DNA of 64,000 nucleotides from Eledone cirrhosa (GCA_964016885.1 OZ024740.1:150908001-150972000), one strand, 5' to 3'. Numbered from the stretch's first letter, positions 8,798 through 46,679 are shown. A program made the numbers and translations. Notes: a model not told the origin generated them from the letters alone.

Positions 8798-9985
<1,188 letters not shown>

Positions 9986-10157
9986 TATAGATAGGTAAAT
10001 ATACACGGATGTGTATGATTGTGTATAGAAGATTATATTAATAAGAGGAATTCCAACTTTGTCTGATTTACTCGTTTTATTTACAATCCTTTAAAATATA
10101 TATAATATGGTATTATAATGAAATAGTATGATAGAATATTAAATTCTAAGTGTTAAT

Positions 10158-10196
10158 TGAACAAGTACTTTCATGCTTTCGCAATCTTCAGGTTCA
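10158..10196 (-). ncRNA. Minimal type-I hammerhead of the Neptune element
   Basis: tgaac-CTGAAGA-t-TGC-gaaa-GCA-t-GAAAGTACTT-gttca. Stem I is 5 bp and stem III is the palindrome AGTACT. Confidence 0.85.
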
Positions 10197-10576
10197 TAAT
10201 ATGTGGTGACAGTCGACTTTGCAATTTTCAACTGTAATGAGATGGGTAAATTTCCTACCTTTTATACATTTTGTACAGAGAAAAGTGGCGCCAGAATGCT
10301 AAGCCCTGTAAACTGTATTTCGACCAATCAGTGTGTAGTTTCACTGAATTACTAAAGCTGATTGGTTTAAGCGTCACGGCTGGTTGAGCATGCTAACGAC
10401 CAATGATCATATCCAAAGCATCAATTGTTTTGCTATGTTTAGAAATGATGAAAATAGCATTTTCTATTAATCATCACCATCAACATCACTTTTATTATTA
10501 TTAATGTTGTTGTTGTTGTTGTTGTTGCTAGTGGTCGTGGTCATAGTGGTAGTAGAAGTAGTACCCCTAAGCGTTA

Positions 10577-12889
10577 TTATTGTTCATTTAGCTTGGGTTT
10601 GAATTTATCAATAAAATTCTTTTCTTTGATTTTTCTCTTGATTTCACTTGGGCTGTGTAATTTGTAGAATGGGAATATTATAAATATTCCCTGACCACAT
10701 GTTGCCAGGTGGCCGCTTAGGGGTATCTGACGGACATTTGGGTCTCTGATTTGTTGACGGTGTACCCGTGCACGTTCCGATAGTGCATTTCCAGTTTGAC
10801 CGACATATAGTTCTTCACAATTCGGGCATTTAATGCAGTAAATTAGATTTCTGCTTTTGCAGTTCATATTTGCATTTGGGAATATTTTTCCAGTTTTTGT
10901 TTTCATATATTAACCGGCGTGTATGGATTGACATGTGCTGCATCGACTATCATTGCATTTAGATACAGTGAATGATTGGTCTTTGTTGTTAAGGTCAAAC
11001 TTTGCTTTTGTTAGTAATTGCTTCAAATTTTTTGGCTGTCTTTTACTAAGAGTCAAAGATCGATCTGTGATTAAGCCTTTTAATTCATTACTTTGAGCAA
11101 TGATCGGTAGGTTTGCTTTGGCAGTGTTGAAGATATTCTGGTGACATGGGTTGTGTGTCATTATAAATGGTATGACCAGTTCTTGGTTTCTTCTTCCTTG
11201 GGTTGTTCTAAGTTGTTGTATAGGTATTTTTATAGCCCGCTGTATGCCATTTTCTATAAGTAGAGATGGGTATTTTTGTTTGAGCAAAAATTCTCTTAGT
11301 TCTGTTAGGCGTTTGTACCTGGTATTCGTATCTTCTACAATGGTACAAATTCTTCTGGCTAGGCAGTATGGGATGTTGCGTTTTGTATGAGGTGGATGGC
11401 ACGACTTAAAATTCAGATATTGATGGGTGTCTGTGTGTTTATAATATATATCCGTAGTAATCGTGGTGTCGTTTTTGATTATCATTATATCTAGGAATGG
11501 TAATTTGGTCCTACTCATCTCTTTTGTGAATTGGAGAGGTGGGTGTAGGTTATTCAGGAGGATAATGAACTCATCCAGAGTATCTAGAGATTCTGTCCAG
11601 ATGATGAAACAGTCGTCAAGGTATCTCTTCCAAGATTTTTCAATGTACTTTCTAAAGTCAATACTATATTTTTCCTCTATTTCTTGGTAGAGTTGTTGTT
11701 CTAAGTATCCCATTACAGAGTTCGCGTAAACGGGAGCAAACTTCGTTCCCATCGCTGTGCCTCTAATTTGGATGTAATTCTTTCCATTGAAGAAGAAAGT
11801 GTTGTTTTCCAGAATAAGTTTAACTGCGTCTAATATAAATGGCGCTGTGAATCTAATGGGAATCACTTCTCTATGTTTTTCCACCCAGTATTTAACCGCC
11901 TTTATTCCTAAATCATGTGTAATGTTGGTGTAAAGGCTTACCACATCAAAACTGAGTAGAAGTGAATTCGTTTCCGTGGTTTTGGGAAGATGGGACAGGA
12001 AGTCGATATCATCCCGGATGAAACTGGGTATGTGAATACATAGTGGTTTCAAAATAATGTCAACAAAATTGCTTAGACGGTGGGTGGTGCATGTTGGACC
12101 AGCTATAATAGGTCTAAGTTTTAAGTCTTTTGGGTGTAATAATTTAATGTACTCACTGTTTTGTTCTCTTACTGCCAGTTGTATTTCTTTTGACTTGAGA
12201 ACTTTCGGTAGGCCATACAGGTTGCTGGGTTTCGGCTCAAAATTGGTGATGTAGTCTCTTTCCTTATCAGTAAATGAGTTGTGGTATTTTGAAGCCAGGT
12301 TGTTGATCTTCTTCATGATGTTGTGGTCTATATTTGACGGTATTTCATGATAGAATGTTGTGTCTTTCAGTTGTTCCTCAACCAAATCCTTGTAGTATTC
12401 AGTATCCATTATAACAACTGCACCCCTTTTATCTGCTTGTTTAATTATTATTGTTTTATCATTTTGTATACGTTTAAGTGCAGACATTTCTGATTTGTTA
12501 ATGTTTGGCCTAACATTAGCATTATGTCTAAGAGGAAATTTAGACAGGATGTCAATGTATTGGTCGAGATAGATATTTCTTCCTTTTGGCGGAGTGAAAT
12601 TTGATTTATTCTTTACTAGTGATTCATCACTCTCATTATTTTTATCAGCGAAGAATTCTACAAGACGTAATTTTCGACAGAATTCTTGGGTATCCTCCTT
12701 CAGTTCTTGGTGGTTGACTGTTGGAGTCGGTGTGAATTTCAGTCCTTTTGACAGAATTTGCATTTCATCATTGTCAAGATCTCTTTTAGATAAATTAATT
12801 ATTTTAGGATCTACGTGTACAGCTGTTTTGGGTATGTTTCCTCCTAGAGTTTTTCTTTTTCCGGTTTTTGTTGTCCTGACGCTAAAAAA
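10577..12889 (-). pseudogene. PLE RT-GIY-YIG polyprotein, interrupted by one in-frame TAA (10910-10912)
   Basis: ORFs 10910-12763 and 10577-10906 are in the same frame (GGT TAA TAT ATG). The frame stays open upstream of the first ATG to at least ~12889 and includes the conserved KIINLS motif. Confidence 0.9.
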
Positions 12890-13270
12890 TGGATTTTTCT
12901 CTGTTCAGGATTTATATTCCTGTTGGTGTTCGCTTGATGAACTTTTGGTCGTGATATTATATTTGGTTTCGTTATGTATTTTGTCCTATTTTTGGTATTC
13001 TGTATATTATTTTTCTTCCTGTTAGCATTATTTTTAACAATCTGGGAAAATGACCTAGGTTTGCTTTCAGGTATAGATCGTTTTTTCGTCCAGTTACTTG
13101 TGGGCAATCTCTGTTGAGATCTTGAGAGTGATCTGGTTATTCTACGTTTTGTTTCCACATTCCTTGTTGGTAGTCTCTGTTGAGATCTTGAGAATGATCT
13201 CCTGGTTTTACTACTTCTCATGGTCTGGTCAAAGGAATATCTATCGTGTTTGTGCTTTTTGTTCATGTTG
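12844..13270 (-). CDS. Basic, Arg/Ser-rich upstream ORF overlapping the PLE RT frame (5' end lost in the TA tract)
   Basis: MNKKHKHDRYSF...RSFSRSQQRLPT (twice)...KIHFLASGQQKPEKEKL*. It overlaps the RT frame, which is -1 relative to it. Confidence 0.55.
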
Positions 13271-13290
13271 TGTGCGATAGGGTGTGCGAT

Positions 13291-13831
<541 letters not shown>

Positions 13832-20183: not shown

Positions 20184-20385
20184 AATAAACGAAGCTAAAT
20201 TTTAATCATTTGACTTTTATTTAACTTTATTTTACACTACTCCGGAGTAACCAAACCAACCTGCGCACTTCGTCGAGTGCTCCAGCCTGCATACTGAGGT
20301 GTTGGTATACAACCAACATAAACTCAAAATATATCTAGCTCCCACACGGGTTGAGCGCTTCAAACAGTAGCGGACCTAAGTCACT

Positions 20386-23064
20386 ATGGATAAACTGGCA
20401 ACCTTAGCGTCACTGAAGGACATCCTCCTACCTGATAAACGAGAATACACCAGTGTTCTCATCAAGAGTACGGACTCCCTCATCCGCAGGATGAGATGGA
20501 AGGCGTTCCACTTCGAAAGAGGAACGCAGAAAATTACCAACACACAAAACATGGAGTACCTTTTTCGATCAAGGAGGAATCCCCCCCACAACAGACTAAT
20601 GGAGGAGTTTGAAAACGAGATGATTAACATCATATCCAACCTCAAATTCTCCGGAAACCCAACCAGAAGTCAGGAGTACCTCAGACACCTGAGAAACCGG
20701 ATTACAGTACTTAAAGGGACAACTGGAATACTTGTCCATGCTGACAAACCAAACAACCTCTACAACATGAACACTGAACTGTACAATAAGATAATCCTCA
20801 GGGAACTGAGGAAGTGCTACAAAAAAACACCTGGATTTACCCTGGATGAGATCAATGCCACAGCTTACAGGATTATATCCAGAATCGGCATAGAGGACAG
20901 GACGGCCCGATACCAACCAAGGGAGCCTCGGATTACCCTTAAAGACCACAAGCCAAACTTTGATCCGACCTCCCTGTCAGACTAATAGCCCCCTCCAGAT
21001 CTGACCTAGTAATCGTCAGTAAAAGAATACTGGATAGGATTTTGCCCAAGCTTCGGAAGAAAACCAAATTACAGCAATGGTCATGCACGAGAGAAGTAAT
21101 AGAATGGTTCAAAATACTGCATGAGAAAAGTAGGACCAGCTTTATACAACTGGATATCGCAAGCTACTACTCCTCAATCTCACCCATAGTACTTAATAAG
21201 GCCCTATTTTTAGCGATATCTAATACAGACCTAACCCGAGAGGAAGTGAGCATCATCCACGCCGCAAGTAAGACCTTAATCCGCTTCGATGGAGACCTTT
21301 GAACCAGGAGTGATTGGCCAAATAACTTTGACATCACGATGGGCTCCAGCGACTCAGCGCAGGTAACGGACCTGGTTGGGCTCTACCTGCTGAAGCAGAT
21401 AAAAGATGAAATCCCCTGCCTGGGCGGCGGATTATATCGTGACGATGCTCTATTCACAGTATATGACCACAGCACCAATATGTTGGAGGGTATGAGGAGG
21501 CGTATTCGCCATTTCTTTAAGAACCAGGGGCTCAGCATAGAAATAGACCCAAATAGCAAGGTAGTTAACTTCCTAGACACCACCCTAAACCTGAACATCG
21601 AGCAATACTACCCCTACCACAAGCCCAACGAGAAACTCGTATATGTTAACGCCAAATCAAACCACCCTAGAGATCCATAACCAAGGCAGTGGTGAGGAGT
21701 GTCTCGGACAGATCTCCAGCCTGTCCGCAAGTAAGGAAATATTCAATAACCACGCGGAATATTACAACGCAGCTCTAAAGAAGGCGGCACATGGACAAAA
21801 TATAACACATAGTCAGAAAAGCCGGGAGGTAGATAGCCCAACAGACACCCACAACCGCGTTGCCCGAGGGGGGAGGGCGAACCCTAACAATACAGGCAGA
21901 GCAGAATCAAATAGGCACCATGTACCCGACACCACCACACGGGCGGTGGGGACTAGTGCGCTTGACCACGAGATGGAGCACAATATGAGTAGCAATCCCA
22001 GGCGTGACGCTAACCACCCCAGGACGGACGACCCCAACCGCAGGACACGTGGGGGGAGGGAGGACGAGCGACCACCCCACGATGGATCTCCCGGGGCGGA
22101 CAACGACCACCCCTCAAATTCGGGCCGCGAAGATAACAAAAAGCATAGAGCCCAAAAGGGAAGCAACAGTGCGGAATCCACCAGCAACCCAACAAATCTC
22201 CAACAAATCACGAAGCCCCCGACCCACACATATAGGAGGAGACACCGACAAATCACGTGGTACAACCCACCCTACTCAGCGGCCCTAAAGAAAAGCTTGG
22301 CCCGATTATTCTTTGGAGCACTTGACAAATGCTTCCCGAGGGACCACAGATACCACAGGATCTTCAACAGACACACTGTGAAGCTTTCGTATTCCACCAC
22401 GAGAAATTTGGCCCAACACATAGCTAGCATCAACAGGAGTAGGCTTAAAAACCACACACAACCAGAAGATGGCAATACAAACACTCAGCAGAACCATGTG
22501 AAAGGAGGGAAGGGGGGACCCAGAGCCCACCTAAGAAACCCAAACAGACCCGAGGACCCCCCACCGAGCCTGGGGGAAGACCAACATGTAACACATAACG
22601 GGAACCCTAATCTAGGCACGCAGAGGCCGACCACCCTCTGCAACTGCAGAAACCCCGAATCATGCCCCCTTGGTAATGAATGCCTCAAGAAGAACCTAGT
22701 GTACGGTTGTAAGGTTAAAACCCCCATCTCCGAACACCTCTACATAGTAGCCACATCAACGAACTTTAAGGACCGCTGGTACAACCATCGCCATTAATTC
22801 AAGAAGGAGGCCAAAAGGAAAAGCACAGCTCTCTCCGACCTGATCTGGAAGCTTAAGCTGGACAGGACCCCATACTCTCTGGCCTGGTACATAATCAGGA
22901 AAGTACCACCCGATAAAGGGGGATCTTGCATATGCAAACTATGCCTGAACGAGACCCTCGAGATACTAAGAGGTGGAAGCGGCCTGATAAACCTCAGAAC
23001 CGACTTCTTCAGGACATGCAGACACCTTAGATCCGGGACCTTTCTCAAGATATATGGACAGTAG
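20386..23064 (+). pseudogene. Hydra-like PLE RT + GIY-YIG ORF, disrupted by frameshifts and stops
   Basis: Fragments read IRRMRWKAF, HADKPNNLY, FIQLDIASYYSSI, MGSSDSA, GGLYRDD, VNFLDTTLNL, SNHP, WYNPPY, CNCRNPESCPLGNEC, LVY..LYIVAT..FKDRWYNH and CKLCLNE. Confidence 0.92.
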
Positions 23065-29078: not shown

Positions 29079-30699
29079 GTGAGGTTTTTTTTACAAAATG
29101 AAAAATAACCGAGGTGTCCTACACGAGTGAAAGCATAAAGGAAAAAAGATGAAATCGAAAATGCAACTGGAGTCTTATTTTTTTTTAAATATATATATTT
29201 ATTTGGTTCTTTTACCGGTTTCGCAGTTCTTCTGCTTTTCAAAAGTAGAGTTGAGATGGAGGGTCTGTGTTTTTCTCACATCTGGTTGGTCTTTGAATGT
29301 TACTTGTTTTATATGGAAAAAGTGGCTCGAAACGCCAGGTTTTTAGAGAAGTAATTCGATTGGTTGGTCAATAAGTATAATAAATTTCGCGCCAGTTCGC
29401 GTTACAAAGTTCTTCAAACAGGGGGGGGGGGGTTCATGTTGTTTTATCATATATGAGTGTTTGAATTTCTTTTTACTTAAAAACGAAGGCTTTTTTTTAT
29501 AAATGTAATTTGATCGGTTATAAATGAAGTTATGGCTGTCACGTGAACAAGTTCATTAAATTTCGCGCCCGTATTTGGGAATTTATTTTGTAGCCTTTTA
29601 GAGAATTTTATGACAAACAAAAGATAATGGTCAAGAGAAATGGGATGGGAGAATTGTTCTGGTTCAGTGAATATAACAGGTTGTTTTTTCATATATGAGT
29701 GAAGTTTGGTTGGTTGATGTAGTCCCGTGAATAAGTATGTCAGCTTTCGCGTAAGTTTGTTTGAATTTCTTTTTACTTTAAAATAAGTGGCTCACGAAGG
29801 CTTTTTTTAAATAAATATAATTTGATTGGTTATAAATGAAATTATGACTGTCACGTGAACAAGTTCATTAAATTTGCGCCCGTATTTGGGAATTTATTTT
29901 GTAGCTTTTTAGAGAATTTTATGACAAGCAAGAGAAATGGGATGGGAGAATTGTTCTGGTTCAGTGAATATGGTTGGTTCGCTGGGGTATCAGAATTCAG
30001 ATTTTCTATTGAAATAAAGAAAGTAAAGATATGTATGTTTATTTGTGTGTGTGTGTGTGTGTATAGGAAGATGATTCTATTAGTAGAAATGGGGGAGGGA
30101 GTTGTATGTGTGTGTGTATATATGGGTGTTATGTGTGTGTGTGTGGGGGGGGGGGGTATGTTAAGATGGAGAGAATATATATATTTTGTGTGTGTATATG
30201 TGTGTAGGAAAGTGATTCTATTAGTAGAAATGGTGGAGGGAGAGGTGTGTGTGTGTGTGTGTGTGGGGGGGGGGGGGTTATGTGTGTGTATGGGTGTTAT
30301 GTGTGTGTGGGAGTCTAGTTAGCATGTTAAGAGGAAGAGAATATATATATTGTGTGTGTGTGTAGGAAAATGATTCCGTTAGTAGGAATATTTTTGAATG
30401 AACATATTTTCCTTACTTATTCGTATTTGCTCTGTTGTATTGTCAGCGCAAACGTATGTTAAGGTTTATTTAGTTCGGGTTTTTATTTTCTAAAGTAGAA
30501 GGTGTTATGTGTGCGTGTATGTGTCTGTTTGGATGGTTAGCATGTTATGGTGTTGACATAATGTATATTAAACCATATTTAATGCTGGTCTATATTTTTG
30601 GTCTATTTATTCGTATTTGTTATGTTGTATTGTCAGCGCAAAGATAAAATGGGAAGACTTGGAATTTGGATGTCTTATTACTTGCGTATATGTCTAGAT

Positions 30700-32842
30700 G
30701 TGCGCTTAGTGGTATCTGTCTCGTGGTTGGATCTCGTAATTGTTGGCGATGAACTCTCATTCTGTTTCTGAGTGTGAGTTTAGTTTGTCCTATATAATCT
30801 TCATCGCTTCATGGCATAAATCAGATTTTTTGATGAGCAAGTGAAGTGATTTTTTACAGCAAAATTTTGTCCTGATTTAAATGTATACGTGTTACCTTCA
30901 ATGAGGTGGGTGCAGGTTCCACAATTAGAGCGACCACATTTTTTGTCAGTTGGTTGTGGGTTTGTAGTAGGTAATTTGGCATTGGTGAGTAATGTTTTCA
31001 GTGATTTCGGTTGCCTTTTGCTTTTGATTATTTTGTGTGTTTCAAGGGCTTTTTTCATTCTTGGATCTTGTTTCAGTAGTGGGATGTTCTTGTGAATAGT
31101 GTTGTAAGCTTCCGTATTTCTTGGGTTGTGTGTTGAGATATATGATAGAATATTGGACGTACCTTGAATTTGTTTCTATTTTCGTAATTCATCAATGCCT
31201 ATTGCTTTAGCCCTTCCTATTCCATTATTTATTAGTAATGGTGGGTACTGTCTTTCGAGTAGAATTTCCTATAATTCTTGAAGTCTTTTATTTCGCGTTT
31301 CATAATTGGAGATAATTGTGCAAATTCTTCTTGCTAGGTTAAAAGGAATGTTCGTCTTCGTATGCTTTGGATGATTGGAGGTGAATAGCAGGTATTGTTT
31401 GGAATCTGTTGGTTTGTAGTGTATGGCAGTTTTAATATTTGTGCCTTTTTTAAAGATTAAGATGTCCAGAAATGGGAGTTGATCTTGGCTGTATTCCATT
31501 GTGAATTGGATGTGGTTATTGATGCCGTTTATTAAGTTTTTGAAATCATTCAGTTGGTCGACTGTGTGGGACCAAAGAATGAGACAATCATCCAAGTAGC
31601 GTTTCCAATTCTCTGATAAATATTTGTGGAAGTTCAATCCGTATTTTGATTTGGACTGTTCATGTATCTGGACTTCTAAGTATGCCATGACTAAGTTGGC
31701 ATAAGTTGGAGCGGCTTTTGTATCCATCGCAGTCCCCGATATTTGCTTGTAAGTACTGCCATCGAAAAAAAAAAGTTGTTCTGTAAGATGAATTTTAATC
31801 CCTCGGTGATGAAGCTTTTTTCTATTCTGCCAGATATCTCTTTGGGATATTTCTCTAGCCAGAATCCTATTGCTTCTAGTCCGTATTGGTGTGGGATCGT
31901 TGTTTAGAGATTCACTACATCGAAAGACACAATAATAGTGTCGTTGTTGACATGTTTGGGGAGGTGGTTTAAGAGGTCCAGATCGTCTCTTACAAGGCTT
32001 GGTATGTGTTTGAGAATTGGTTTTAGTAGTATGTCTATAAAGTTGCTCAGTCTGTGTGTTTCACATTGTGGGCCCGCTACAATTGGTCTTAATTTAAGAT
32101 CTGTTTGGTATTGTGTGTTCACGCGGGCTGAGGTGGATTGTTTACAGGCATCATTAATTATTTTACCCTTGTGGATATTCGGAAGTCCGTAAAGGTTGCT
32201 GGTTTTGTATTCAAAATGTGTTAAATAATCGCGTTTTTTTTTTAGTTAAGTCTTCCTGGTATCGACAAATCAGTGTGTTTAATATGGTCATTGTTTTTGA
32301 TTGCTGGTAGTTTTTTACTCTTTCATAGTAATTACTATTTTGTAAGAGATAGAACATATAAGTTTTATATTTTTCAGCATCCATAATGACAACAGTACTT
32401 CCATTGTCCGCTTCCTTAATTATAATGTCCGTATTGTTTTTTAGTTCATGGATAATCTCCCATTCCCTTCGACTCGTGTTGGGTCTAGGTTACGGTAGTT
32501 CATGATATGGGAAAGTAGCTATGTGGTCACAAAATTTGTCCAGAACTCTGCTTCTACATTTTGTTGGGTTGTAGCTGCTTTTATTCCCTACAATTGATTC
32601 GTCGTTATTCTCCTTGTCAAAGAATTCCTCTGTGAGACGAAATTTTTTACAGAATTGTGAGATATCGTCATTTATCTCATTGAGGTTAGAGTATTGTGGT
32701 GTTGGTGTGAATTTCAGTCCTTGGAGAGAATTTTTATTTGTTGGGCTGAGAGGTTTGTATTTGAAAGGTTGATTATTTTCGGTTTTTCAAAATCGGTTTG
32801 TGCCACCGGGTGTCGTGGATCCTGTAGCCTTGGACTAAAAAA
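30700..32842 (-). pseudogene. Neptune-type RT-GIY-YIG ORF with many frameshifts
   Basis: ORF pieces 31904-32122, 31269-31727 and 30801-31058 are colinear with the 10.6-12.9 kb protein. Confidence 0.9.
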
Positions 32843-33147
32843 TGATTTTTCTGGAATGTTTTTTCAATGGTATTATTATATCTAATATATCTATTATTAT
32901 TATATCTATTATTATAATAACTTTTAAGTAAAAAGAAATTCAAACACTCATATATGAAAAAACAACCTGCCCCCCCCCCCTTGTTTGAAGAACTTTGTAA
33001 CGCGAAATTTATTATACTTATTCACCAACCAATCAAATTACTTCTATAAAAACATGGCTTTTAGAGCCACTTTTTTCCATATAAAACAAGTAACATTCAA
33101 AGACAACCAGATGTGAGAAAAACCACAGACCCTCCATCTCAACTCTA

Positions 33148-40574: not shown

Positions 40575-42704
40575 CTATCCGTTAGGGTATAACGTGGGGC
40601 TGTAATACAGGAAAGTTTTGTGCAATTTATGTTTACAAGCCGAAATTGCCACAGATTTTTTGTTTAAGATGTGGTCCGTGGCGTAGAGTATTTCCAGGGC
40701 CTCAGCGGCGCAGAGGTCACATGGTCTTTTATTTCCGTTATACGATCTAGCCCTAGCTAGGATCTCCCAGTGTAACTTATATTGGGTGTGGTTGTCTTTT
40801 AGACTCCAGATATAAGCTGAAAGTGACGTTATATTCCTTCTTAGAGGGTAACGAAAAGAATGGGTATGCATGTAAAGACGCTGCTTGAAACTATTGGCGG
40901 TTAACCCTATGTAGGCCCTATGGGACGTGGGTGTTACAACCTTACATTTGTAGACAATGTTACTAGAGAGGCATTTCCCGGATAGGGGGCAATCAGCCCG
41001 ATTCCTACAGTTACAGTTAGTACTAACTACAGGGTTGCACGTGTTCCTACGGCTAGGTAGTTTAGCTAAATTTGAAGCTGTGATGTTATGTGCAAGGTTA
41101 GGAGTCGTAGAGTATGAAATTTTAATAGTATTTCTATTAAAAATGTTACTATATTTATGTGTAGGGGGAAAATGCTTCGTAATAAGGGAAAGAAAGATCT
41201 TAGCTAATGGTGTGGCCACCTCCATATTATATGGTGGGTTAAACCAACAAATGCGACGGGATCTATTTCTTCTAGGTCTATTTTCGTACTCTGTATATGC
41301 TACCTTATCAACAAATCCACTTCGAGCAAGAGCTTCATTATAGTAAGTGGAATGGTCGTTGAAAATGCGCTCGTTGGTGGAAAGACGGGAAAGCCTCAAC
41401 GACACGTTTTTTACCAGGTTCTTGGTTATGCTGGCAGGATGGTTGGAATGCTTACTTATGTAATTAAGCGTATCATTCGGCTTTCTATACGGGTAATACA
41501 ACCCATTCAATAAATTAAGGGTAACGTCGAGGTAATTAACGACCGAGAGATTGGCCTTAACCTGTATAGAGAGGTTGAAGCCTTTAAAGAAGGCTGTGAG
41601 TTCTTTTCTGAACCTGTCGCAAGCACGAGGTCCGCACTTAGTCATGGTCAAAAGACCATCGTCACGGTACAAACCACCGCCCGCGTTGGGGAATTCGTCC
41701 TTGATAGAGAAAAGAAGGAAAAGGCCAATAAGATCAGTAACCTCCGCAGAGTCACTGGCGCCCATACTCACGTCGAATGAGGTACTATTGGATTTTTTAA
41801 TCCAAATAGAGTCGTCGAAATTAATCACCGACTTTCGGGCATTAAGGATGACATCAACTTCGAAATCCTTAACCACTGTGAGTGTTTTAGCGAAATCGAT
41901 AGCTCTAAGGAGAAGTGGTAAAGTGATGGAGGAGTAGTAATTGTTAATGTCGAATTGGATAAAACGGCAATGTTCCTTGTTACATATGCCGTTGAACCAA
42001 TAAATCACCGCGAAAGAATTGTTCCACAGTGCGAGAGGGGCCAAACTTCTAATTTCAGGTATAATTCTATCAAGAATCGTTTTACTAAGTCTACCTAAGT
42101 CGGACTTCATAGGGTTAATAAGCCGAATAGAGGGGTTGTTCGGAAAATTGGATTTGTGATCCTTCAGGGTAAAGTGGGGAGAGATAGGGTCCAGAGGTTC
42201 GGTCCGGTCCAGGATGTTGAGATCAGATGTGATTTTAAACCCAGCATCGTTGATTTCATTGATGACGCACCGATTAGTTTTACGGTAATCCTTAGTTACA
42301 GCATTATGTAGTAGTTGATGGTAAGTACTGCGCTCCACTTGATATAGGTTGCCAGTTTTGTCGGAATGGACGTGCACGGCGTTAGAATCCTTAATAGAAC
42401 GAATTCTATTCTTCAGGTCTTGCTGGAAGGAATTTCTCCTATTCCGAAATTTGATAGTCCGAATGAGTTCCAAGACATCATTTTCAAAGGGTAGCAATGC
42501 TGGGTTCCACGGAGGGTTATTATAGGTTTTAAATTCAAATTTATCCTGTTTGTTGTCTGCTTTTCGCGGATTATCGAAATAAAAGGCACGCCAACGCAAC
42601 CTTTTAATGAACGCGTCTGTTTTCTGTATCAGGAGTTTTAGGTATGTTTTCCTGCTTGGTACGGGTATGTTCTTTGTAGAAATATTCAGATGTTGTTTTT
42701 GCAT
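40575..42704 (-). CDS. PLE reverse transcriptase + GIY-YIG endonuclease (Hydra-clade-like), 709 aa, intact
   Basis: HSDKTGNLY (DKT instead of DKG), IRLINP, FIQFDINNYYSSI, SMGASDSAE, GGLYRDDGL, NYLDVTLNL, SNHP, WFNPPY, CNCRNRADCPLSGKC, IVY...YIGLT..FKQR..H and CDLCAAE. Confidence 0.95.
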   Translation of the reverse strand: MQKQHLNISTKNIPVPSRKTYLKLLIQKTDAFIKRLRWRAFYFDNPRKADNKQDKFEFKTYNNPPWNPALLPFENDVLELIRTIKFRNRRNSFQQDLKNRIRSIKDSNAVHVHSDKTGNLYQVERSTYHQLLHNAVTKDYRKTNRCVINEINDAGFKITSDLNILDRTEPLDPISPHFTLKDHKSNFPNNPSIRLINPMKSDLGRLSKTILDRIIPEIRSLAPLALWNNSFAVIYWFNGICNKEHCRFIQFDINNYYSSITLPLLLRAIDFAKTLTVVKDFEVDVILNARKSVINFDDSIWIKKSNSTSFDVSMGASDSAEVTDLIGLFLLFSIKDEFPNAGGGLYRDDGLLTMTKCGPRACDRFRKELTAFFKGFNLSIQVKANLSVVNYLDVTLNLLNGLYYPYRKPNDTLNYISKHSNHPASITKNLVKNVSLRLSRLSTNERIFNDHSTYYNEALARSGFVDKVAYTEYENRPRRNRSRRICWFNPPYNMEVATPLAKIFLSLITKHFPPTHKYSNIFNRNTIKISYSTTPNLAHNITASNLAKLPSRRNTCNPVVSTNCNCRNRADCPLSGKCLSSNIVYKCKVVTPTSHRAYIGLTANSFKQRLYMHTHSFRYPLRRNITSLSAYIWSLKDNHTQYKLHWEILARARSYNGNKRPCDLCAAEALEILYATDHILNKKSVAISACKHKLHKTFLYYSPTLYPNG

Positions 42705-42892
42705 GATGAATATAAGTCAGTAGAGTGCTCAACCGAAGGAGCCAAATAGTAATAATAATAAAATTGAAGACTAAAATCCAAAGAGGGCTCGATAAGGAAA
42801 ATATATATCAAATATATAAGAACCGTAGAGCAAATATTTATTAAAATATTTATTAAAATATTTATTAAAATAACTATATATATATATATAAA

Positions 42893-44045: not shown

Positions 44046-46679
44046 ATGAATGAACTCACCACTCTGGCATCACTGAAGGACATCCCATTACCGGGTAAAC
44101 GAGAGTACACCAGGAATCTCACTAAGAGTACTGACTCCCTAATACGCAGGATGCGGTGGAGGGCTTTGATATGAAAACCCCAACACCAATAACAAAAAAC
44201 CATGGAGTACCTCTTCAGATCAAGAAGGATCCCCCCACACACACAACATACTATTGGAGGAGTTCGAGAACGAAATGATTGGCATCATTTCCAACATCAA
44301 ATTTTCCGACCAACCATACCGGGGTCAAGAGTACCTAAGACGACTGGAAAATGGAATTACTGAGCTTAAGGAATCTACAGGAATACTCGTCTATGCCGAC
44401 AAAACCAACAACCTTTACAGCATGGACGTTCAACTTTACCATGAGCTAATCCTCAGGGAATTGAGAAAAAGCTACAAAAAACGGCCGAGGCTACCCTGGA
44501 GGATATCAACATCAAGGCTTATGAGATCCTATCTGGTCTTGGCATAGATGATAGGACGGCCCCATACTAACCGGGGAGCCTAGGATAACCATTAAGGACC
44601 ACAAACCAAACTTTGAGTCTAACCTGTCAGTTAGACTGATAGCCCCCTCTCGGTCAGACATGGGGGTAATTAGCAAAAGCATTTTAGATAGGATCCTGCC
44701 AACACTTAGGAGTAAAATAAGGTTACAACTCTGGTCCTGCACCAGCCAAGTGCTGGACTGGTTTACGTTTTTACCTGACAAACATACTAGCTTCATACAA
44801 CTAGACATCAACAATTACTACTCCTCTATCTCGCCCATAGTCCTGAACAAGGCACTTATATTCGCGATTGATAGGACAGACCTAACGCGCGACGAGGTCC
44901 AAATAATACACGCCGCCAGAAAGACCCTGATGCTATTCGGTGGGGACATATGGACCCGGAGTGACTGGCCAAATAATTTTGACATTACAATGGGCTCCAT
45001 TGACTCCACCCAGCTAACGGACCTGGTTGGGATATACATACTCTACGAGATCAGGAACGAAATACCCAACATGGGTGGCGGACTGTACAGAGATGATGCA
45101 CTCTTCATCGTCGTGAACCACAGCACCACAATAAACGAAAATATGAAGAGAAGACTTAGACACTTTTTTAGCAAGATAGGACTTAAAGTAGAGATGGAAC
45201 CAAATAGAATAATAGTGAATTTCCTGGACACCACCCTCAACCTCAACACCAAGCTACACCACCCATATCATAAACCCAATGAGAAGCTTGTGCATATCAA
45301 CGCTGGGTCCAATCACCCTAGATCTATAGTTAAGGCCCTAGTTAAGAGTGTCTCTGATAGGATCTCTAACTTGTCTGCCAATAAAGAGATCTTCAATAGT
45401 AATGCTGATTATTATAACTCAGCGCTAGCTAAGGCGTCCCACAGCCATAGAATCAGCTATAACCCTAAGGGGCATGCATGATTGAGATGACCCAAGGGTG
45501 CCCCGGGCCACTACCCTCAGGGGCATGAGTCGCCCACCTAATACCACGGTGACTAGTAGTAATACTCCCAGACCCCTAACCGCCACCACCCCGGTAGAAG
45601 GTCCCGAGTACCCCACCGGTCTAATACCTACAACACTGAGGACCACTGTAGTGCGGAGCATAGGCACCCCTCACCGGCCCCACCACCCACCGAACCCTCA
45701 TTGAGCAGGGAGGTCGCACCGCGCAGGTTTATAACCACACGGTGGGCCCATATAACCCTCATGATAGTGACCGCTCTGCACACCTGAGTAACACCAACCG
45801 AGCTCGACCTGACCTCTGCACAACCCCGCGATGGACCACGGCGGTCACCTAACAACCCCGCAAGAATAGGACCAGGAAGGTCACATGGTATAACCCCCGT
45901 ACTTGGTGGGTCTACGTACCAGCCTGGCTAGAACATTCTTTAGAGTACTGGATAATTGTTTCCCTAGGGCCCACAGGTACCATAAAATATTCAACAGGCA
46001 AACGGTGAAACTTTCCCACTCAACCACACGCTCCGTAGACAAGCACATAGCCGGCATAAATAGGAATAGGCTCACTGCCTCTAATACCACCGTAAACCCC
46101 GGAGCCACCCTACGGAACCAGCACGCGGGACGCACCAGGCCCCGGACAGGCCCAACTAGCACAGCGGAACCAAACGACCCTGTGCTGAATGCGGCGGCTA
46201 CGCAGCCAACCCCGCGTGATGGTAACCCCGCGGTACATGTGAAGGGGCTTAAAAAGTCATGCAATTGCAGAGACCCATCACTATGCCCCCTTAGTAATGA
46301 ATGCATGACGAAAAACGAAGTCTACAGGTGCAAGGTCACAACCCTTAACTCGGAGCACCTGTGCATAGGATCCACGGCGACGAGCTTCAAAGATAGGTGG
46401 TATAACCATCGCCACTCCTTTACCAGAATAGAAAAGAGGCAATGTACGGCCCTTTCTGAATTGATCTGGAAGCTCAAACTTGAAAAGACCCCGCACTCTT
46501 TGGTCTGGTCCGTGGTTAGAAAGGTTCCCCCAGTCAGAGGTGGGTCTGGTATTTGCAGCCTCTGTCTTAGTGAGACACTCGAGATACTTCTTGGCGGAAC
46601 CAAGCTATTAAACAGAAGGGCCGACTTATTCGGCGCCTGCAGAAACCTAAGGACGGGAACTTTCCTCAGGCTATATTGA
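44046..46679 (+). pseudogene. Hydra-like PLE RT + GIY-YIG ORF (disrupted), relative of 20386-23064
   Basis: YADKTNNLY, FIQLDINNYYSSI, ITMGSIDS, GGLYRDD, NFLDTTLNL, CNCRDPSLCPLSNEC, VYRC..CIGST..FKDRWYNH and CSLCLSE. Confidence 0.92.

Follow-up and report, generated by a model that had tools for sequence, protein, structure and literature searches.

Endonuclease-bearing Penelope-like elements (EN+ PLEs) are described with one ORF in the accessible text of PMC8557442, and two ORFs are ascribed to EN-less elements in the accessible part of PMC6431247. An ORF1 that a frameshift with a pseudoknot can set apart is mentioned in two figure legends (Craig et al. 2021, PMC8557442, Fig. 1 legend; bioRxiv 10.1101/2021.04.23.441226, legend). 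Going by the legend text alone, those two-ORF PLEs resemble the elements described here in having an upstream coiled-coil or helical ORF1 split from the reverse transcriptase (RT) by a frameshift, which is putative here. The elements described here differ from them by a C-terminal GIY-YIG domain and by the lack of a pseudoknot in four families of the host genome. Thus, as far as the legends go, the general idea of an ORF1 frameshift in PLEs is already in print, and the departure is that EN+ PLEs are described as single-ORF. In the text that was searched, no description of programmed frameshifting in EN+ PLEs was found (figures, Repbase and subscription papers were outside its scope, and absence from print is not established).

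Members of the Neptune clade share with the elements described here an RT, a CX2-5CxxC linker, a C-terminal GIY-YIG domain, (TA)n sites, tandem or inverted copies, and a terminal repeat with a hammerhead-like core, which is a candidate by pattern here, but they have one ORF, whereas two overlapping ORFs are present here. A T6A frameshift in Athena is reportedly described in the Terminon paper of Arkhipova et al. 2017. The CX2-5CxxC motif is common to Neptune and Nematis according to the available text of PMC8557442, and a killifish Neptune with two ORFs appears in a portion of PMC12602865 that mentions no frameshift. Poseidon_Ac, a single-ORF PLE, also has an extended helical region before the RT, and its N-terminal helix is predicted to dimerise in the accessible sections of PMC11167929. 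In Poseidon_Ac the helical region is in frame with the RT, while homology to ORF1 is tentative here. Outside the PLEs, HIV-1 gag-pol (U UUU UUA plus a stem-loop, as given in the available part of PMC4373837) has the same heptamer in the same phase and also places a structural ORF upstream of an enzyme ORF. Unlike HIV-1, the elements described here have no downstream stem-loop, encode no protease or capsid, and are not viruses. In these elements ORF1 and the RT-endonuclease (RT-EN) frame overlap at −1 over a conserved U UUU UUA, and the RT is very probably made by programmed −1 frameshifting as an ORF1-RT-EN fusion.

Two Neptune-type elements in the window

The window is a stretch of 64,000 nucleotides from Eledone cirrhosa (GCA_964016885.1 OZ024740.1:150908001-150972000), the host genome in what follows. 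It contains one copy of each of two PLE families, with these features:

9973..13285, minus strand: element 1, whole (family 1; the 9973 end is approximate), which differs by about 1.0% from an intact copy of family 1
12811..13285, minus strand: 3' remnant of ORF1, encoding the basic and low-complexity tail of its 449-aa product
12883..12889, minus strand: slippery heptamer T TTT TTA (U UUU UUA) of family 1, read F-L in the ORF1 frame and F-F in the −1 frame
12882, minus strand: private A-to-G change that creates an apparent AG acceptor, found in the window copy only among the family matches listed
10577..12904, minus strand: RT, CX4CxxC linker and GIY-YIG frame, −1 relative to ORF1
10177..10191, minus strand: candidate hammerhead-like core (CTGAAGA..GAAA), matched by pattern within the 3' repeat of element 1
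29758..32886, minus strand: element 2 (the 29758 end is approximate), a decayed family-2 copy, 5.1% diverged and with several indels
32836..32842, minus strand: slippery heptamer T TTT TTA of family 2, in the same phase relative to KIINLS as in element 1

In element 1, minus-strand positions 12891-12880 read CAT TTT TTA GCG (HFLA). The preliminary description was right that the RT frame is −1 to the upstream ORF and that it is open from the heptamer through the conserved KIINLS motif (12805-12788) with no earlier ATG; the earliest in-frame ATG is at 12763, past this motif. The RT frame is open over 12904-10910, and a private TAA at 10912-10910 lies ahead of the endonuclease. The family stop of ORF1 (TAG, 12813-12811) is 23 codons past the heptamer, and an early TAG at 12846-12844 is private to this copy. 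The upstream ORF had been called basic, which holds for the tail; the tail is merely the last third of the 449-aa ORF1, whose front half is predicted to be helical. At its 5' end, element 1 is cut at 13285 and runs into a (TA)n tract. A perfect palindrome at 13444-13521 is centred in this tract, just upstream of the truncated end, and its flanks are TA-rich. Rfam detected neither a hammerhead nor a frameshift element, and its output consisted only of TA-repeat matches to miRNA models, all under their cut-offs.

The same site, in the same phase and again without an ATG, had been reported in the divergent element at 29-33 kb, and we found it there as stated (heptamer 32842-32836). KIINLS of element 2 begins at 32779 with no ATG between it and the heptamer, and the ORF1 stop (TAA, 32775-32773) is 20 codons past the heptamer. 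CATTTTTTAG is at 32844-32835 on the minus strand in element 2, and the minus strand of the window has CATTTTTTAG at the two elements only. Element 2 is truncated 44 bases above its heptamer, and the hammerhead pattern CTGAAGA..GAAA gave no match in it. Both window copies are dead and 5'-truncated.

Intact copies of family 1 encode an ORF1 of 449 aa and an RT-EN frame of 775 codons, whose earliest Met is codon 48. Both families are young, and family 1 has many copies in which the 775-codon frame is fully open. Intact family-2 copies encode an ORF1 of 400 aa and also have a 775-codon RT-EN frame; its first Met is codon 163, beyond the conserved KIINLS/GLKF block, and the frame is without a usable start. 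Identity between the two families is 27% in ORF1 and 49% in RT-EN. In both of them, Pfam found RVT_1 at E 1e-6, just below the gathering score, and GIY-YIG over the cut-off. The linker reads CNDNRCGTC in family 1 and CGRSNCGTC in family 2, and both agree with CX2-5CxxC. Both families thus have an RT followed by a C-terminal GIY-YIG endonuclease, as EN+ PLEs do, but they depart from the canonical single ORF, as nearly all copies place ORF1 and RT-EN in separate frames. By these sequence features, both are Neptune-type (endonuclease-bearing) PLEs.

The window also contains a different type of PLE, an open frame of 713 codons at 40575-42716 on the minus strand that seems to be single-ORF. It has a CNC..CP..C linker ahead of a GIY-like motif, both noticed by eye, and no Pfam match at E 0.1. 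Decayed relatives of it are at about 20380-22797 and at 44170-46679, both on the plus strand.

The frame break in four families of the host genome

Family-1 copies were counted by an anchored pattern with a gap up to the normal length, which gave 322 matches, and the following figures come from the 100 listed. T6A was kept in 94 of these 100, while five had a substitution and one had five Ts. AG followed the heptamer in one of the 100 listed, namely the window copy. The family reading at the site is TTTTTTAAC in 29 of 30 family-1 loci, and public contigs from three runs show the family base at 12882, not that of the window, at all depth. Family 2 gave 264 matches up to normal length, and 95 of the 100 listed were of normal length. 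Copies with seven Ts or longer gaps were counted in both families by separate longer-gap patterns. Only 4 of 326 family-1 copies were fused by one extra base; family 2 had 11 longer copies, nine of them by one base (9 of 275 fused), and eight plain T7 among the 275. Fourteen longer-gap copies were fetched, and 12 of them were 1.8-6.3% diverged from the intact copy. L204 of family 2 is a young fused copy (0.5% diverged), and L210 has two extra bases and is 0.8% diverged. When loci were picked by protein similarity alone, T6A was present in 51 of 52 family-1 contexts (from 80 loci, three of which lacked a junction) and in 33 of 36 family-2 contexts (from 50 loci, nine of which lacked one). Judged by the copy counts and the public contigs, the frame break belongs to the family, in contrast to the AG at 12882.

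An ORF1 query of the host genome retrieved two further families. Family 3 reads CCT TTT TTA GGG in the same phase, with a tail of 19 codons, and its ATG at RT codon 20 is just ahead of KIINLS; its GGG is also the codon after the heptamer in HIV-1. Family 4 reads CAT TTT TTA GAC, again in the same phase, with a tail of 10 codons. The first in-frame RT ATG is codon 48, 163, 20, and 70 in families 1 to 4, which is past KIINLS in three of the four. Over the four host ORF1s, 14 of the 40 Phe codons are TTT and 14 of the 129 Leu codons are TTA, and the site is always TTT TTA. Outside RT N-termini used as queries of the host genome returned family 1 again and nothing else, and neither the L135 ORF1 query nor a short junction pattern had a match in it.

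It could be argued that a homopolymer indel or an assembly error accounts for the break and that active elements have one continuous ORF. The single-ORF Neptune-like relatives L111, L112, and L184 would agree with this, as would the single ORF of canonical EN+ PLEs in the available text of PMC8557442. The preliminary description had named one continuous frame in most copies as the outcome that would speak against it, and the opposite was found. Copies fused at the site are at most 4 of 326 and at most 9 of 275, and the break is common to four families and many other genomes. The copy counts refute an error of this kind, and we give it practically no weight.

Alternatively, a base might be added at T6 during transcription, and polymerase slippage would then yield a minority of fused mRNAs. 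Seven-T genomic copies do occur (the 4 of 326 and the eight plain T7 in 275 given above, and L204 at 0.5% divergence). However, relatives carry T TTA AAC and G GGT TTT, which are not homopolymers, and unrelated C-runs with varied alleles give rise to fused copies as well. A run of six is also short for polymerase slippage. This explanation is thus very improbable.

The C-runs were seen in six fused copies of families 3 and 4 that were fetched; their frames are joined through C-runs that had expanded to different lengths, away from the heptamer. Young copies with ORF1 and RT in one frame, up to 1,183 codons, were L252-L261 in family 3, L267 in family 4, and L204 in family 2. Such always-fused young copies arise via homopolymer expansions, and as far as we have seen they have not spread as a subfamily.

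Junctions in relatives from other genomes

An RT alignment search yielded 99 loci, 80 from metagenomes and 19 from genome bins. Viral contigs gave one weak locus without a junction. The metagenome and genome-bin loci are presumably animal DNA within those collections. The nineteen PLE loci within bacterial genome bins (L179-L197) are likely to be contamination from animal hosts. From the 99 loci, 42 were dropped for lack of an N-terminal match, four because they were at a contig edge, and three as duplicates. The 50 left and one intact copy per window family made 52 scorable loci, which were classed by rule: 17 have an upstream ORF of at least 95 codons, 19 are single-ORF, and 16 are unclear.

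The upstream ORF is at −1 in all 17 two-ORF loci and at +1 in none. A canonical in-phase heptamer is in the overlap of 14 of the 17, compared with 2.5 expected from the ORF1 background (44 matches in 6122 positions); because the loci are related (L146 and L150 are nearly identical), the nominal P of 3e-11 overstates the significance. The A6C matches in L146 and L150 may be chance in A-rich DNA. Conservation of heptamer and phase over many copies, which the preliminary description had asked about, is therefore seen both among the listed family-1 matches and among the two-ORF loci. The three two-ORF loci without a canonical heptamer are L122, L128, and L179 (T TTT TTG in L179), and they count against the frameshift reading. 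Other classic heptamers are T TTA AAC in L121, L127, and L139 and G GGT TTT in L135 and L141; thus, the class of signal is kept while its letters are not. The heptamer fills overlaps as short as 10-16 nt (L102, L125, L139, L141). In the ORF1 tail, F-L is the sole kept motif, present in 11 of 12 aligned proteins (17-44% identity), and the twelfth continues in the −1 frame. On these comparisons, the heptamer is conserved at the RNA level beyond what the protein needs.

We also made a quick tree of 35 RTs, without named Neptune or Nematis references and leaving out L104 as too short. The window families are in a group of eight rows with support 92, all T6A or T6G, and seven of the eight have the linker motif. 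The sister group holds single-ORF linker-bearing elements and other heptamer types. This layout implies repeated gain or loss of the frameshift arrangement.

The preliminary description had left it open whether the site is a frameshift signal or a splice acceptor, in which case the T-run and AG would be the 3' splice site of an intron that the element has kept and an upstream exon would be joined to the RT frame. PLEs are known to keep introns (accessible text of PMC8557442), and a kept AG acceptor would give a G after U6A such as is found in 9 of 11 T6A junctions (L105 included). A GTCAG|G with matching codon phase lies six bases downstream in family 1. Some Mytilus gene models link ORF1 and RT, but these are predictions, and one of them (P0015) keeps HFL in the ORF1 frame. 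On the other hand, the youngest family, family 1, reads TTTTTTAAC with the AG private to the window copy, and no AG directly follows the heptamer in 7 of 16 junctions. Inside ORF1 of the four host families, no phase-2 donor scored at least 5/7. Contigs of four runs of unspecified kind had no joints, which does not bear on splicing either way. Moreover, an acceptor gives no reason for exactly six Ts, for an ORF1 that is open through the run, or for the −1 overlap in all 17 loci. The acceptor half of the alternative is thus improbable. The half that stood is −1 frameshifting, to which heptamer, phase, overlap, heptamer swaps, and the rarity of fused copies all point. The G after U6A may then be accounted for without splicing, since the next codon modulates slippage in HIV-1, and an Arg codon of the RT frame is another possible cause of this bias.

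Among named sequences, the nearest ORF1 relative comes from Mytilus. In five proteins (P0015, P0068, P0069, P0039, P0095), ORF1 is joined to the RT and part of the junction is skipped; P0015 and P0069 are among the Mytilus gene models. These joins are likely to be annotation artefacts of a frameshift.

L122 is a two-ORF linker-bearing PLE without the heptamer, in which an ATG of the RT frame shares bases with the stop of ORF1 (ATGA, L122:1833-1860). This suggests stop-start coupling in place of frameshifting at that locus. It bears on a further possibility, namely that the RT frame is translated alone, by leaky scanning, internal initiation, re-initiation past the ORF1 stop, or a non-AUG start, and that the heptamer is incidental. 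Re-initiation coupling may exist in some relatives such as L122, and the family-3 ATG at RT codon 20, which also counts against the frameshift reading, would permit an independent start. In family 2, however, the first ATG lies past KIINLS/GLKF, and independent translation leaves the kept in-phase heptamer unexplained. We therefore consider it about as improbable as splicing.

ORF1 protein and expression of the RT

The front domain of ORF1 is predicted to fold (pLDDT 88) with helices at 16-36, 38-70, 90-136, and 139-177. The N-terminal domain of single-ORF relatives has predicted helices at 9-17, 19-50, 67-109, and 112-150, and both helical domains match the same three-helix templates across corresponding ranges. 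No Pfam family was over the cut-off for ORF1, and a specific fold match was not found (best Foldseek E 0.12; best VIA Z 9.2, to generic helical bundles); Atlas gave a lead at 0.76. ORF1 is predicted to be a helical bundle with a basic tail, and it would probably bind RNA and oligomerise. Profile comparison of the L135/L141 ORF1 with the single-ORF N-terminal domain gave a convincing HH probability of 85.5. For the ORF1 of the window families, the same comparison was not significant with small alignments; with deeper alignments P was 0.021, with ILPRKY over LIPKYL, and a reversed control gave 0.64. These values hint at homology of the window-family ORF1 to the single-ORF N-terminal domain.

The reading that we favour, programmed −1 frameshifting, would resemble that of gag-pol, and the heptamer would be a real, conserved recoding signal. 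Most ribosomes would read to the stop 20-23 codons past the heptamer and release the 400-449-aa ORF1 protein. A few percent would slip as tRNA-Phe and tRNA-Leu re-pair in tandem, and these would make a fusion of about 1,150-1,200 aa. The outcome would be a gag-pol-like surplus of structural protein over ORF1-RT-EN. The frameshift would thus split off an excess of the helical domain, and the fusion would keep that domain on the RT. As the helix layout of ORF1 is that of the single-ORF N-terminal domain, the fusion would restore a protein of the ancestral type.

A stimulatory structure downstream of the heptamer, which the preliminary description had suggested looking for, was sought by folding the 80 nt past the heptamer against shuffles and by a simple pseudoknot scan. 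In the four host families, no fold exceeded shuffles (z +0.4, −0.8, −0.2, −0.9) and no pseudoknot was above shuffles, so the usual hairpin or pseudoknot 5-9 nt downstream was not detected in them. Most known −1 sites have a downstream structure. Among the 13 other junctions, hairpins were found in L099 (z −3.5) and L102 (z −3.2), and L116 has a pseudoknot candidate (0 of 40 shuffles). By eye, TCCTGA and TCAGGA on either side of the family-1 heptamer could form a 6-bp pairing, which was rejected because the site lies within it and the other families have nothing equivalent. Since no hairpin or pseudoknot is detectable in the families of the host genome, the slip probably depends on how slippery U6A itself is, and the codon after it or a queue of ribosomes at the close-by stop may contribute. 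U6A alone gives 4-6% −1 frameshifting in reticulocyte lysate (available text of PMC3458567), and in HIV-1 the codon after the heptamer modulates slippage (accessible part of PMC4373837).

The distance from heptamer to stop over 16 junctions is 0-1 codons in six, 10 in four, and then 12, 17, 19, 19, 20, and 23. Among the distances above one codon, 7 of 10 are at 9-11 or 19-21 codons compared with 1.7 expected (P 0.0004, with bins set after seeing the data and lineages that are related). Family 1, at 23 codons, is outside these bins, as are P0002, P0162, and P0156 at 23-24. This clustering is a lead only. A spacing of a single ribosome length was rejected, as it fits neither window family (60 and 69 nt). 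Thirteen of the 16 stops, at 0-1 (six), 10 (four), and 19-20 (three) codons, correspond to about zero, one, and two ribosome lengths. A rather speculative extension, which we hold to be unlikely, is that in Neptune-type elements the −1 slip is timed by termination and free of structure, with the ribosome paused at the ORF1 stop, or one or two queued behind it, as the roadblock at which a following ribosome would slip on U UUU UUA. Across the clade, the same N-terminal helical domain would then be switched among fusion in frame, frameshifting, and stop-start coupling.

If frameshifting is the route, a large share of EN+ PLEs, usually called single-ORF, would express their RT in the manner of gag-pol, and the real enzyme would be the ORF1-RT-EN fusion. 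Consensus libraries, gene models, and attempts at purifying active Neptune protein would then have the wrong N-terminus, and the Mytilus models would span the frame break by invented introns. The many natural, divergent −1 sites seemingly without an RNA stimulator would also make a test set for bare U6A, the next codon, and ribosome queuing in animal cells.

Esterases are reported in Neptune-like PLEs in the accessible text of PMC5408684. In L116, L121, L125, L127, and L139, the C-terminus of ORF1 is SGNH-esterase-like (GDSN and DG.HY motifs, by eye) and lies directly before the heptamer. Four of these five have T TTA AAC with a stop immediately after it.
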